NCBI GenBank assembly: GCA_009924095.1 | Contig: RFSG01000004.1 | Coordinates: forward strand, 1-53,336 | Source of the DNA: Sphingobacteriia bacterium | GTDB lineage: Bacteria > Bacteroidota > Bacteroidia > J057 > RFSG01 | DNA: 53,336 bases | Direction: 5' to 3' | Part shown: in pieces, positions 12,481 to 19,745 of the stretch | Layout: each line of letters begins with the position of its first letter | Position numbering within the stretch: position 1 is the stretch's first letter | The notes under the pieces: generated by a model | What the model saw: only the letters and a program-made list of their open reading frames with translations | Database searches by the model: none | Told to the model about the DNA's origin: nothing | Translations under genes and position numbers: made by a program

Positions 12481-13920
12481 TCAATATTCAAGATATTGGA
12501 AAGGCACACTAGGCCCCTGGGTTTCTTGAAATACCCAAATTAAAAGTAAGGCAATTACAATTGCCTGACCCATCCATCCTATTCGAATAAATTGTTGTTG
12601 ACTCCAACTAAATATCTTTCCGGGTAAAAATTCAAATAAAGCCCCTACCCCTAAGCAGGTTAAGGGCCAACGATAGGTTTCTATCCAAGTGAAAAATAAA
12701 TGTCCTTGAAAACGAGAGAACATACTTTCCATCATATACATCGCAGAAGTTATATCAGTGGTGCGAAAAATAAGGGCAGTAAAAACTACCACATGGAAGG
12801 TAAGGAACCAGGCGAAACAATTAAAAAGTTGTTTTGGTAAAAAGGAAAAAAATGACTGAATCGGAGTCCTCCATAGAATCTCCCCAGCTAACCAAATTCC
12901 ATGTAAACCACCCCATAAGATATACGTCCATGCTGGGCCATGCCATAATCCTGATAAAATAAAAGTAAGCAATACCGATAGGCCCGCGCCCCATCTTCCC
13001 CAACTTCTCCAATTAAAATTTAAAGGCGTAAATACATAATCTCTGAACCATTGCGACATAGAAATATGCCAACGCTTCCAAAAAGTAGAGAGGCTTAAGG
13101 ATCGTAAAGGCCTGTCGAAATTAGGGCTTAGACGTATCCCTAATAATAAACTTATTCCCATGACCAACAAGGAATATCCCCCAAAATCCAGATAGAGTTG
13201 AAACAACCATCCATAAGCAGCAAACAGATGTTCCATCCCCGAAAACAAACCGGGATTATCAAACACCCTATCCACCCAATTCATCCCTAAGGCATCGGCT
13301 AACCAGTATTTTTGTAAGATCCCTACTGTAATTAAAAAGTACCCTTCTCCCGCCTCAGTAGTATTGGGTTTTTGCAAAGTATTAAATTGAGGCAATAATT
13401 CAGTAGCACGGGAAATAGGTCCTGCTAAAACATTCGGAAACCAGGATACATATAATAGATACGTAAGGAAGTTTTTCTCAGGTTGTATGATTTCTTCCCG
13501 ATGTACATCGAGGGTATAGCTGAAATTTTTAAAAATATAAAAGGATAATCCAATCGGCGCAACCCATTTCAGCCAAAGCGGAGCGGAAGCTCCTTGAAAA
13601 CTGAGTACCGTATCCGTGAAAAACCAGGTATATTTAAAAATCAATAAAGTGCCAATGTTCAGTAAAAATGATAACCAAAGTAGATAATCTCGTTGTTTAT
13701 CATTTGCCTTCACCATCTGCTGCACCAGTACAAAGTCTGCCAACGCAAGACCTGCTAACAGCACCACCCAATATCCTGAGAAAGAAAAATAAAAGAGTAG
13801 GCTAAAGCCTAATAAAATTACATTTCGCAGCTTAACACTTTTCACCCCAAAGGCAAGCACCGCCAGGATAATAGTAAATAAGAATATAAACTGAGGGGAG
13901 GAAAAATGTAAGGGGATCAT
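12481..13920 (-). CDS. MBOAT family O-acyltransferase (PatA/AlgI/DltB-like)
   Basis: PIGLSFYIF, AGPI, LYLDFGGYS, NF.RP, FWKRWHISMSQWFRDYVF, SGLWHG (catalytic His); C-terminus PFQYLEY. Confidence 0.93.
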   Translation of the reverse strand: MIPLHFSSPQFIFLFTIILAVLAFGVKSVKLRNVILLGFSLLFYFSFSGYWVVLLAGLALADFVLVQQMVKANDKQRDYLLWLSFLLNIGTLLIFKYTWFFTDTVLSFQGASAPLWLKWVAPIGLSFYIFKNFSYTLDVHREEIIQPEKNFLTYLLYVSWFPNVLAGPISRATELLPQFNTLQKPNTTEAGEGYFLITVGILQKYWLADALGMNWVDRVFDNPGLFSGMEHLFAAYGWLFQLYLDFGGYSLLVMGISLLLGIRLSPNFDRPLRSLSLSTFWKRWHISMSQWFRDYVFTPLNFNWRSWGRWGAGLSVLLTFILSGLWHGPAWTYILWGGLHGIWLAGEILWRTPIQSFFSFLPKQLFNCFAWFLTFHVVVFTALIFRTTDITSAMYMMESMFSRFQGHLFFTWIETYRWPLTCLGVGALFEFLPGKIFSWSQQQFIRIGWMGQAIVIALLLIWVFQETQGPSVPFQYLEY

Positions 13921-15647
13921 CAGGGCAAAATTAATTTATCTCCTGGGTGAAGGTCTTCGGCGCCAGGTCCATTCAGCTTGCGAATTTCTTCCACAGTTAC
14001 TTGAAATTTCTTGGCAATCTCCCAAAGATTATCTCCACTCTTTACAATATAGGGAGTTCGAGGAACCGGGACTGGGCGCGCACTTTTAAGTGGGGCAGGT
14101 TTTGCAGGAATTACCTCTTTTTTTACCTTCAGGGTTTGTCCGATTTTTAACCGATCTGAAGTGATGCCATTCCAGGATTTTAGCTGAGAAACGGTAGTAT
14201 GATAAACTTCCGCAATTTCACTTAAGGTTTCTCCTGATTTTACAGTATGCATCTTCCAAGTAGCGGTTGAAGTTGTAGTAGGAGTAGGGGTTTTGATAAG
14301 CTCTTTAAGTTCAGGGGTAGAAGAGGTGGGAAACTCAGTATTGGGAATAGGTTCCTTAAGAACAAAAGAGCTTGAAGCATTGGATAACCATTGACGGTAG
14401 GCATACAAATAAGCGTTAAAATATAATTCTGCTTTCAGTTCATATCCACTAACCGTAAGATGTACCCGGTCGGGTTTCGCAAGTTTTTGTTGATACCATT
14501 TTTGCATGGCATATTGGCCACCACTCACCTGATAATAATCATAAAAGGCACAATCTTTTTCAAAGGCAATGGCTCGGGCAACGCTGGCAAAACGTTTACA
14601 TTCCGCCACATTCTTTTTCCGGCAATATACATCCTGAGAACAGGTAACTAAAATGGATATACCCGGACAAACCGCACGCATGATGTTGATTAAGTTCCTG
14701 AGATTATCTTCGAACACGGGTTGATCCATCACACGGGGATAAAAATCATTTGCCCCTAAATCAATTACTACCAAATCAGGATTCAATTCTCGAAGTTGTT
14801 CTGGCATTAAGCCTTGACGCAATAAGCTGGTATATCCTGCTCCATTAATTCCTACACTTGCATATAACATTCCGGTGGTATCTGTATTTTCTAAGGATAA
14901 CCCATAACATTGAAAATACGCTGCATTTTCATCTCTTGCAGATAGCCTTATGGTAAATGAACTGGGAGCATAGGGCAAACGAACTTGGGCATAAGGTTTT
15001 CCATCTTCGGTTTCCATGGGAACCCATAAGGTGTCACCAGAAGGAAGGCATACCAGCAGATCATAGGAATGATCATTTCTATCACCATAAATTTTTAGGA
15101 TACGATCTTCAGGATGTAAAAACCCCTCTCTAAATTCAATCTTAAATCCTGCTGAAACATCTTCCGTATAAATAGTAACACCGCAAAGACCTAACGTAAA
15201 ATCGGGGGTTGTTTGAATGTTTTTGGCATATCTCCAATACCCAAAGGAAGACGTTCTATAATCCATGGTGCTATGGGTTCCTGCGGAGGCATAAGGGAAG
15301 ATAAATCCTCTACCTCCTGATCCAAAGGTTGCCCGCATTTTTTGCCGTAACACCCCAGTGAAAAAATCTGCTTGCACATGCGAATCGCCCATATGCAGGA
15401 CCTTTACTTTCTTTTGATTGGAGGATTCTAATGCAGTAAAAAATTTTTCCAGTGCAATTGGACTATCCCATTCCAGTGAGTTTTGAGCATATCGAATAAA
15501 GGGATATTTACGGCTATATCCTTCTCTTGACTTAATATACAAAGAGTCACCGGGTCGGGTGATTTCAAGGGAAAGAGGCTGAGCATTAGAATACCCTAAT
15601 CCTAAGACCCATTGAAACATCCATAACCAACAATAGAGTAAAGACAT
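13920..15647 (-). CDS. SGNH/GDSL hydrolase-family protein with two C-terminal LysM domains (Ape/PatB-like)
   Basis: GDSH, GINGA, LGAND, DRVH; LysM repeats [13 protein letters not shown] and [18 protein letters not shown] overlaps with both neighbours. Confidence 0.88.
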
Positions 15648-18322: not shown

Positions 18323-19745
18323 GTATTTTTAAATTCTGTAATGCCTGCCGATCTATCTTGCCATTCACATTTAAAGGGAATTCAGATATTCCATGCCAAT
18401 GATGAGGTACCATGTATGCCGGAACTTTTTCTGCCAGCGGATTTCTCCATCTTTCCGGATGTGTCTCTTCCCCTTCAATAAACGCATGTAGTTCCAGGTT
18501 GCCAACCGTATCCGGAATTGCCAGCACTGCCCCAAGCCGGTTCCCTATTATCTCCCCTAATTGAAATTCTATTTCTCCTAATTCAATTCGATACCCTTGA
18601 ATTTTAACCTGATGATCTAATCTTCCCGTAAACAGCCAATGGGAATTTTGAAGAACAGCCCTATCCCCGGAACGATAAACGAGTTTATCATTATAGTAAA
18701 TTAGTTTATCGTTTGTTTTTGCTGCGTCTTTCCAATAACCGGAAAATAATTGATTTCCCCCAATCATTAGCTCACCGGTTTCAGGGTTTAATGTAAAGTT
18801 AGTTCCAGGCATCGGTTTCCCAATGGAGATAATACCCAACTGATGTTCCCAATATTCGGGATTTTCCGGCAGGGTATAAGTACTGCAAAAAATGGTTGCT
18901 TCGGTTGGTCCATACACATTTCTGAGGGTTGCGTTCGGGATGCAATTTTTCCAGGCTAAGGTGGGCTTTACATTCAGGGCTTCCCCACAGAACAAAGATT
19001 CACGTAAGTCGGGGAAATGTAAATCCTCCATAAACCGATATAAAAGATTCAGGATAGAAGGAACCAACAGTGCAACGGTAATATTTTCCTCTTCTAATAA
19101 ACGAGCAATCGCAAAAGCTTTGATTTCATCCTCAGGAACGGTCACCAAAGTTGCTCCGGAAATTAAAGGAAGCAAGGTGCTAAAAAAGGATAAGTCGAAG
19201 GTGAGATCAAACATTTGTAATACCCGATCTTTCGCATCTACCTTAATTTCTTCTTGAGATACAGCTTCAAAAAAAGCTTGTAAGGCTTTCCAGGAAATCA
19301 TCACACCTTTCGGCTGACCCGTACTTCCGGAGGTAAATAATAGATAAGCGATATTATTTTCAGGCGGGACAGAAAAGTCAGGGGATAAAGGTTGAAATCC
19401 TTCGGGAGGGGTAATGGAATTTGTAAAGGGGATAGGAGATACTATCCAATCCGGATTTATCTGGTTGAGGATTCTTTGGTTTCGATCAATAGGATGGCCT
19501 GGATGTAGAGGAACAGGAATTCGTTGCGTAAGCAGACAAGCGATCAATAAAGCATAGGTGTCAGGATGGTCAGGGCAATATAATACAATCGGTTGTTGAA
19601 CTTGGGTGTTTTCAAGCATCCAATTTGATAAAAACCCAACTCGTTTAGATAACCATTCATAAGAATAAGATTCTCCTCTACAGATTATTGCTGAATGATT
19701 AGAGGCTTGAAGTAAAGAATTGTATAAACCTGAATAAACCGACAT
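18315..19745 (-). CDS. Stand-alone amino-acid adenylation enzyme (DltA/AlmE-like aminoacyl-carrier protein ligase)
   Basis: YLLFTSGSTGQPKGV, FDLS, LFCGE, NVYGPTEAT, YRSGD, GRLDHQVKIQGYRIELGEIE, NGKIDR; no fused PCP or C domain. Confidence 0.88.
   Translation of the reverse strand: MSVYSGLYNSLLQASNHSAIICRGESYSYEWLSKRVGFLSNWMLENTQVQQPIVLYCPDHPDTYALLIACLLTQRIPVPLHPGHPIDRNQRILNQINPDWIVSPIPFTNSITPPEGFQPLSPDFSVPPENNIAYLLFTSGSTGQPKGVMISWKALQAFFEAVSQEEIKVDAKDRVLQMFDLTFDLSFFSTLLPLISGATLVTVPEDEIKAFAIARLLEEENITVALLVPSILNLLYRFMEDLHFPDLRESLFCGEALNVKPTLAWKNCIPNATLRNVYGPTEATIFCSTYTLPENPEYWEHQLGIISIGKPMPGTNFTLNPETGELMIGGNQLFSGYWKDAAKTNDKLIYYNDKLVYRSGDRAVLQNSHWLFTGRLDHQVKIQGYRIELGEIEFQLGEIIGNRLGAVLAIPDTVGNLELHAFIEGEETHPERWRNPLAEKVPAYMVPHHWHGISEFPLNVNGKIDRQALQNLKIHG

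Follow-up and report, generated by a model that had tools for sequence, protein, structure and literature searches.

A putative PatA-type acylation cluster of a freshwater Bacteroidota genetically tied to an adenylation enzyme and a carrier protein

The closest described relatives of the gene cluster discussed here are the peptidoglycan O-acetylation (OAP) clusters of Bacteroides and Porphyromonas, for which Weadge, Pfeffer and Clarke (2005, PMC1199599) give the gene order ape1b, ape1c, pat. More recent work from 2025 describes MBOAT-SGNH pathways other than Dlt as acyl-CoA-fed and without a carrier (PMC12148441). That paper also assigns the role of acyl shuttle to a C-terminal FxYxxF hexapeptide: PatA auto-acetylates the tyrosine of this motif from acetyl-CoA and PatB takes the acetyl group, whereas in Dlt the shuttle motif sits on a separate microprotein, DltX (PMC12148441). 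The current split places Dlt, which is carrier-fed, uses the separate DltX and acts on teichoic acid, on one side and all other systems, which are acyl-CoA-fed with a fused tyrosine shuttle, on the other. Here we analyse contig RFSG01000004.1 (assembly GCA_009924095.1) of a Sphingobacteriia bacterium, a freshwater member of the Bacteroidota; the whole stretch of 53,336 nt is called the window. Six co-oriented genes on its minus strand (12481-19745) encode an adenylation enzyme, a GNAT acyltransferase, an acyl carrier protein (ACP), two SGNH proteins, SGNH1 and SGNH2-LysM, and an MBOAT. We read this operon as a cluster of the ape1b-ape1c-pat type whose acyl groups come from an adenylation enzyme and a carrier and which works in a Dlt-like way. 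Our probability that the carrier supplies a small group derived from an amino acid for O-acylation of peptidoglycan is about 0.6, and the group put on the cell wall is probably of this kind and not plain acetate. The evidence consists of gene content, synteny, co-retention of the genes, catalytic residues, folds and a weak docking score.

The gene set recurs in other genomes. A neighbourhood search across Bacteroidota had been proposed by a first-pass annotation of this DNA, and its outcome supports the linkage that the annotation suspected. Around the best MBOAT matches, the full six-gene order is present in four relatives, G001 and G002 from the same family and G008 and G016 from another. 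A set of 80 loci was seeded with the adenylation enzyme (36-42% identity) from a scan of species genomes; these loci belong mostly to Bacteroidota, with some from Ignavibacteriota, Myxococcota, Gemmatimonadota, Binatia and Pseudomonadota. An ACP gene is found in 62 of them, an MBOAT gene in 55, both in 52, a GNAT gene in 51, SGNH1 in 16 and SGNH2-LysM in 10. The six-gene layout accounts for nine (L042, L048, L076, L079, L080, L083, L085, L098, L099) and is cut by contig ends in L084 and L089; it recurs in several orders of Bacteroidota. The conserved block in 16 compared loci of the six-gene type comprises the six genes only, and the ACP gene adjoins SGNH1 in 20 of 20 cases, 15 times just upstream and five times just downstream. 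Five relatives show a scattered layout. Only SGNH2-LysM and MBOAT are adjacent in G004, G009, G013 and G017, and in G012 the MBOAT gene stands alone and ACP-SGNH1-SGNH2-LysM is divergent from the adenylation gene. All five retain all six genes: the adenylation enzyme is matched at E values of 1e-82 to 1e-94 (40-42% identity), the ACP at 1e-17 to 1e-22, SGNH1 at 1e-42 to 1e-72 and the GNAT at 1e-56 to 1e-66, and an MBOAT and an SGNH2-LysM are carried as well. The gene set outlasts the loss of operon structure. The five genomes are kin and therefore do not represent five independent events.

These data also bear on a reading in which two units are neighbours by chance, namely an adenylation-GNAT pair with a cytoplasmic product and an unconnected ACP-SGNH-SGNH-MBOAT unit. 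The scattering of the genes in five relatives would fit such a reading, as would the 316 nt that separate the GNAT stop from the ACP ATG and the stem-loop that follows the GNAT stop. However, the same order occurs in the four relatives named above with GNAT-ACP gaps of just 18-74 nt, it recurs across orders, the scattered genomes are complete, and no part of the region is less conserved than the spacer. We consider chance neighbourhood very improbable. The first-pass annotation had cautioned that a hairpin and promoters separate the adenylation-GNAT pair from the ACP. The stem-loop is indeed there, but the fold of the spacer as a whole is no better than chance (z -0.53; as many as 29 of 100 shuffled versions do equally well), and a scan of 12000-21000 found no minus-strand sigma-70-like or terminator-like site within it. 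Over the scanned interval, 27 promoter-like sites compare with 23.6 expected and 11 terminator-like sites with 8.6 expected. TAnnTTTG is a Bacteroidota promoter word; two copies lie in the spacer, and the window total is 53 against 67 expected. No Rfam family reaches its gathering score in the whole window. The caveat carries little weight because the gap is so short in the four relatives. In the independent assembly of run X2, one contig bridges 16612-17820 with 2 differences. In that of run X8, from a relative, a single 63.7-kb contig is collinear over 12002-17316 and 17693-20000, and the spacer alone is replaced. The contig of the related strain shows ~93-94% identity over the genes, with unrelated spacer letters and a similar total length. 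A DltX-like microprotein was considered for the spacer and rejected, as the sole open reading frame read there (31 aa) is not hydrophobic.

The MBOAT connects the operon to the OAP systems. Its sole NCBIfam match is the DltB model TIGR04091, at 176.4 bits against a cut-off of 375, and its only PDB matches are the DltB structures 8jem and 6bug (~1e-24), with RWH and WHG aligned and both conserved histidines kept. Residues H285, H327 (in WHG), F474 and Y476 are invariant in 24 sequences. Among the MBOATs in the examined loci, 67 of 72 end in F.Y..[FYWLIM], with or without an ACP neighbour, and the other five end in YYYFKF. S. aureus DltB is without the terminal motif and a DltX gene adjoins it. 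The window's MBOAT is classed as PatA-type and not DltB-type because the FxYxx[F/Y] shuttle motif is fused at its C-terminus. A quick maximum-likelihood tree of 81 MBOATs, with SH-aLRT support only, places it in a 19-row clade of six-gene and scattered forms (SH-aLRT 99), which together with five Ignavibacteria-type rows forms a clade of 24 (99). This clade is sister to an 11-row clade (94) that contains the Bacteroides OAP MBOATs, and the 35 rows hold together at 97. A separate group of 44 rows contains the MBOATs directly after the ACP in the commoner cassettes. A very long branch leads to S. aureus DltB, which falls outside the other MBOATs compared; its grouping with a Proteus MBOAT was flagged as long-branch attraction and discarded. 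From the tree placement we conclude that the window's system is by origin a member of the OAP (Pat/Ape1) lineage. The window's genome encodes two more MBOAT paralogues (C39:4107-5300 and C217:40394-41605), ending in FIYFQF and FIYFRF. In one Bacteroidales locus (L101, 12549-17193), ACP and MBOAT are duplicated in tandem, and the two MBOAT copies are nearly alike in the tree.

The SGNH proteins bear on the acceptor. The model of SGNH1 (pLDDT 89.8) has N-terminal helices at 3-23, in the membrane, and 35-61, followed by an SGNH domain with an inserted beta domain. Its Foldseek matches are Ape1 of C. jejuni (8gkd, 8gld) and of N. meningitidis (4k3u), at E values from 7e-24 to 2e-22 and TMt of 0.77-0.84; the next fold follows at 9e-08 with a TM of ~0.3. 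The link to peptidoglycan, drawn at first from the LysM domains, is therefore stronger than LysM alone would make it. Invariant in 35 sequences of both SGNH paralogues are GDS, Asn339, Asp438 and His440 (SGNH1 numbering). SGNH2-LysM shares ~25% identity with SGNH1 over roughly 400 residues, has a signal-peptide-like N-terminus as read from its translation, and retains the inserted segment in addition to two C-terminal LysM domains. Neither SGNH protein matches PF04914 (DltD) in Pfam. We propose, by analogy, that SGNH1 is the acyl transferase beside the MBOAT; our guess for SGNH2-LysM is a second transferase or a trimming esterase.

The same carrier-fed machinery could serve an acceptor other than peptidoglycan, such as an exopolysaccharide, the lipopolysaccharide core, a lipid, a lipoprotein or another GlcNAc-containing molecule. 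LysM binds GlcNAc polymers generally, and the genes downstream on this strand include one for a GT9 glycosyltransferase. Moreover, the layout met most often among the adenylation-seeded loci runs adenylation-GNAT-ACP-MBOAT and then an SGNH-like protein of 306-357 aa, whose AlgX or DltD matches are weak; this pairing of the wider family with other SGNH types implies that the loader module serves several acceptors. In the window, however, SGNH1 has no strong structural match other than peptidoglycan O-acetylesterases, and in the MBOAT tree the sister group is the clade with the Bacteroides OAP proteins. The GT9 and transporter genes, for their part, do not accompany the cluster elsewhere. A different acceptor is therefore judged unlikely, and peptidoglycan remains the acceptor in our preferred reading.

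For the adenylation enzyme, the core motifs align with adenylation domains of nonribosomal peptide synthetases. NCBIfam AA-adenyl-dom TIGR01733 is matched at 257.5 bits, below its cut-off, and the DltA equivalogs are missed clearly (TIGR01734, 216.6 bits against 559.85; NF003417, 227.3 against 476). The best solved match is LgrA module 2 (157.6 bits), which we take to activate glycine; AlmE (4oxi) is matched at 3.5e-47 and DltA (7vhv) at 9.3e-47. The ten specificity positions were mapped by what we take to be the GrsA numbering and cross-checked only against the alignment of S. aureus DltA; they read DLFLLCVIFK in the window's enzyme, DLMLLCVIFK in the family majority (41 of 78) and DLMVFCTVAK in the annotated S. 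aureus DltA (record CP052031). All 78 family members have the Asp at the alpha-amino position and the Lys of A10. With S. aureus DltA, at 27% overall identity, the window's code has 4 of 10 residues in common (Asp, Leu, Cys, Lys) and the family majority 5 of 10 (D, L, M, C, K). The pocket Cys aligns with the Cys of FCGE in S. aureus DltA. In B. cereus DltA, Cys-269 lies near the C-alpha of D-Ala and contributes to the choice of enantiomer (PMC4176424); the pocket Cys is taken as its putative equivalent by the position of the FCGE motif, not by alignment. The code points to a small amino acid, and the residues of the pocket make loading of an alpha-amino acid onto the ACP a well supported prediction.

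Loaders related to the window's enzyme, or replacing it, occur in other contexts. A Segatella copri locus (L126; NZ_CP085933.1, 7959-11857) encodes an adenylation enzyme of 34% identity, an ACP, an AAC(3)-family acyltransferase and an alanine racemase within a glycan locus with a flippase, a polymerase and glycosyltransferases and no MBOAT. It looks like carrier-fed D-alanyl transfer to a sugar without an MBOAT, and the racemase neighbour is a hint of D-Ala in the wider adenylation family. In Ignavibacteria loci, two adenylation and two GNAT genes are divergent from SGNH1-ACP-MBOAT, with one ACP. The second adenylation enzyme has the code DFMAFCAVFK, DFVCLCAVFK or DFFSLCTVFK, and because this pocket differs, the two loaders suggest two different cargoes. 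Across the seven loci of this type (L036, L058, L061, L068, L069, L075, L087), five have two GNAT genes, L061 has one and L036 none. A profile of the window's type of ACP matched 40 of 301 sampled Bacteroidota genomes (E<=1e-8). The MBOAT gene lies beside the ACP gene in 20 of 20 loci from the 21 strongest ACP-profile matches outside the window's genome (G106 left out), and ten of these 20 have the order Ape1-like SGNH, ~1.7-kb gene, ACP, MBOAT. Such variant loci are L133 (6049-11723), L134-L136, L139-L141, L144, L145 and L149. In L133, the one of the ten in which the middle gene was scanned with Pfam, the order is a small SGNH (242 aa), an Ape1-like SGNH (486 aa), a different AMP-binding enzyme (573 aa), ACP and MBOAT; in this variant the loader seems to have been exchanged.

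In the ACP, W36, D37 and S38 are invariant (24 sequences), and Ser38 is the presumed phosphopantetheine site; the window's genome encodes a phosphopantetheinyl transferase (PF01648, 36.9 bits). The protein matches the putative ACP 2lml strongly (1.2e-20), DltC is not among its 19 PDB matches at E<=1, and in NCBIfam only generic ACP models respond, all below cut-off. A second ACP of the same family was not detected in the window's genome by tblastn at E 1e-4. The AlphaFold2 model of the GNAT (pLDDT 95.4) matches generic GNAT N-acetyltransferases in Foldseek (1u6m, 4.6e-09), and a carrier-protein-bound GNAT, 8zt4, appears at rank 25. A complex of MBOAT and ACP was modelled from custom alignments of 24 rows each, with three controls. 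It scored 0.41 against 0.00 for the best control; the runs agree in 100% of contacts and the partner pLDDT is at least 82. Of 80 solved complexes 58 reach the score mark, as do 2 of 110 mismatched pairs; passes at 0.60 or under, however, comprise only seven of the solved complexes and both mismatched pairs. The model thus gives weak support to docking of the ACP on the MBOAT. As the DltB-DltC complex is solved (6bug), the pass may reflect memory or likeness.

Taken together, we propose the following sequence of steps for carrier-fed acylation of peptidoglycan. The adenylation enzyme would load Ser38 of the ACP with a small alpha-amino acid that it has activated, D-Ala or Gly being the likeliest. 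The GNAT would probably N-acetylate the tethered aminoacyl group; this is the weakest step. The ACP would then dock on the cytoplasmic face of the PatA-type MBOAT, a hand-over suggested by gene adjacency, co-retention and the weak complex score. Via His327, the MBOAT would pass the acyl group to its own Tyr476 in the C-terminal FQYLEY on the periplasmic side, and membrane-anchored SGNH1 would take it on the serine of GDS and esterify the glycan strand. The tyrosine shuttle and the serine transfer are inferred by analogy with PatA/PatB and Dlt. Held by its LysM domains, the secreted SGNH2 could add the group at a distance or remove it as classical Ape1 does.

GNAT-like loading domains of some polyketide synthases load acetyl onto a carrier, and an ordinary peptidoglycan O-acetylation could be organized along such lines. 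The GNAT would load acetyl from acetyl-CoA onto the ACP thiol, the MBOAT and SGNH proteins would add or remove O-acetyl groups, and the adenylation enzyme would have another purpose or supply a minor cargo. The order and folds of the trio are those of Bacteroides ape1b-ape1c-pat, and the GNAT family consensus retains the RGxGL motif of the acetyl-CoA type. Against it, the ACP is found in more adenylation-seeded loci than the GNAT (62 against 51 of 80), and GNAT-less adenylation-ACP-MBOAT clusters are common. Likewise, the number of GNAT genes tracks that of adenylation genes, as in Ignavibacteria with two of each and one ACP, and the Asp and Lys of amino-acid activation are invariant. The carrier would also be superfluous for plain acetylation, as PatA of C. 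jejuni uses acetyl-CoA directly (PMC12148441). In the window, the presence of an adenylation enzyme, a GNAT and an ACP in the operon speaks against a carrier-free system that takes acetyl-CoA and yields O-acetyl. We therefore regard acetyl transfer through the carrier as quite unlikely.

Nevertheless, several points weigh against carrier-fed acylation with an amino-acid-derived group. Bacteroides walls carry base-labile acetate on their peptidoglycan, with values of 69% for B. fragilis and 27% for B. thetaiotaomicron (PMC1199599). The B. finegoldii locus has, behind an RND efflux operon, genes for two SGNH proteins (463 aa, then 305 aa) and an MBOAT (495 aa) but none for an ACP or a ligase, and an uncultured Bacteroides genome shows the same arrangement. 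Together with the direct use of acetyl-CoA by PatA, a sister clade that is without a local ACP or adenylation gene implies that such MBOATs need no carrier, and the tree that defines this clade is a quick one. Linkage of the adenylation gene to the cluster has exceptions: neither ACP nor MBOAT is found in 15 of the 80 adenylation-seeded loci, and just three of these have <700 bases downstream of the adenylation gene. LgrA module 2 has CGEA at the same place as the motif of the pocket Cys, so the code cannot separate D-Ala from Gly. In the GNAT of the window, the Q/RxxGxG/A motif reads RKEGNL; the gene is missing from 29 of the 80 loci and distant from the other genes in G012, which makes its step dispensable. 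Given the length of the GNAT-ACP gap, the operon may be transcribed as two transcripts in the window. Finally, the acyl group, the step of the GNAT, the acceptor and the division of labour between the SGNH proteins are predictions from genomic and model-based support.

The coordinates of the features are collected in Table 1. All six open reading frames lie on the minus strand and Pfam agrees with the domains assigned at first pass. The junctions described there were read back from the sequence: 2 nt separate the ACP TGA from the SGNH1 ATG, TGATG joins SGNH1 to SGNH2-LysM and SGNH2-LysM to MBOAT, and the adenylation gene shares 8 nt with the GNAT gene. The ACP reading frame has an alternative 112-aa form from a TTG start, and a TTG lies 3 nt upstream of the ATG of SGNH2-LysM.

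Table 1. Features of the six-gene operon in the window, in order of transcription
Feature	Position	Strand	Basis
Stand-alone adenylation enzyme, amino-acid type, 476 aa, presumed ACP loader	18315..19745	-	Pfam AMP-binding 4.2e-56
GNAT acyltransferase, 231 aa, accessory	17627..18322	-	Pfam Acetyltransf_1 4.8e-06
GNAT-ACP spacer, non-coding, 316 nt, unconserved	17311..17626	-	read from sequence
Carrier protein (ACP), 80 aa from ATG	17068..17310	-	Pfam PP-binding 4.8e-06, 27.2 bits
SGNH1, membrane-anchored Ape1-like, 472 aa	15647..17065	-	Lipase_GDSL_2 8.6e-06, 26.8 bits (cut-off 32.9)
SGNH2-LysM, secreted Ape1-like paralogue, 575 aa from ATG	13920..15647	-	Lipase_GDSL_2 2.4e-15, LysM 1.8e-32 (2 stretches)
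MBOAT, PatA-type, 479 aa, C-terminal FQYLEY	12481..13920	-	Pfam MBOAT 3.1e-17

The cluster is flanked upstream by a phosphofructokinase gene. Downstream, two minus-strand genes occupy 10103-12447: one for an SDF-family (GltP/DctA-like) transporter, which begins 33 nt past the end of the MBOAT gene, and a GT9 heptosyltransferase-like gene, with which it shares 4 nt. Both may be co-transcribed with the cluster in the window. We reject them as operon members because they are not conserved beside the cluster elsewhere and lie outside the conserved block: no SDF match occurs in the 80 loci, and GT9 is found only in L051 and L107, at a distance. A 645-aa protein with an M23 peptidase domain is encoded 2.3 kb upstream of the cluster (22056-23993, minus strand), and a ComA-family phosphosulfolactate synthase further upstream (26451-27206, minus strand).

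As a tentative generalization, to which we would give slightly less than even odds, Bacteroidota and, in a reduced form, Ignavibacteriota would attach to their peptidoglycan, by an ester bond, a group derived from an amino acid, such as N-acetyl-D-alanyl or N-acetylglycyl. The loaders would be exchangeable and the acyl group lineage-specific, delivered via one PatA-type shuttle. Our search of freely available full texts found no account in which a PatA-type MBOAT or Ape1-like proteins are coupled with an adenylation enzyme or a carrier. If true, an ester-linked amino-acid-derived group on peptidoglycan would be a cell-wall modification not yet described, and many environmental and host-associated diderms would carry this new substituent. 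It could change the cells' sensitivity to lysozyme and autolysins, their surface charge and the way phages and immune receptors recognize them. PatA-type MBOATs would then be able to accept acyl groups from a protein-bound phosphopantetheine arm. The operon breaks the split between carrier-fed and acyl-CoA-fed systems in that a fused-shuttle, PatA-type peptidoglycan machine is genetically tied to an amino-acid ligase and a carrier.

Among known systems, AlmEFG of Vibrio cholerae, which places glycine on lipid A, shares with the window's operon the use of an adenylation enzyme and a carrier in a diderm. AlmG is a cytoplasmic-face lipid A acyltransferase, whereas transfer in the window is predicted to run via the MBOAT and periplasmic SGNH proteins; no AlmG-type or lipid A enzyme was found by Pfam among the six genes or the four flanking genes scanned. 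The commoner cassettes of Bacteroidota, Ignavibacteriota, Myxococcota, Gemmatimonadota and Pseudomonadota resemble the operon in that their adenylation enzymes are of one family with the window's (36-41% identity) and have the same code, their GNAT and ACP also belong to shared families, and their MBOAT ends in the same motif. They differ in that the MBOAT directly follows the ACP and belongs to another clade, and they contain neither the Ape1-like pair nor LysM.

With Dlt, the operon has its logic in common, namely a stand-alone adenylation enzyme, a small carrier, an MBOAT and an SGNH-type transferase, and carrier and ligase genes are coupled to an MBOAT-SGNH pair by genomic association. None of the window's proteins attains a Dlt equivalog cut-off, the carrier does not resemble DltC, the shuttle is fused to the MBOAT and not a separate DltX next to a DltB, the SGNH proteins are Ape1-like and not DltD, and a GNAT is added. 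Of the Dlt-like hybrid seen by the first-pass annotation, the supply logic stands; a descent from Dlt does not, as the MBOAT is PatA-type and the SGNH proteins are Ape1-type.

The closest agreement is with the OAP clusters. The MBOAT has the catalytic His and a fused shuttle of the FxYxxF type, the SGNH proteins are of the Ape1 type with Ser, Asp and His and a beta domain inserted after block I, and the gene order SGNH-SGNH-MBOAT corresponds to ape1b-ape1c-pat. Ape1c is without the inserted segment, whereas the second SGNH protein of the window keeps the segment and adds two LysM domains; its counterpart in B. finegoldii is a protein of 305 aa. To this OAP-type core, the cluster of the window adds an adenylation enzyme, a GNAT and a carrier.

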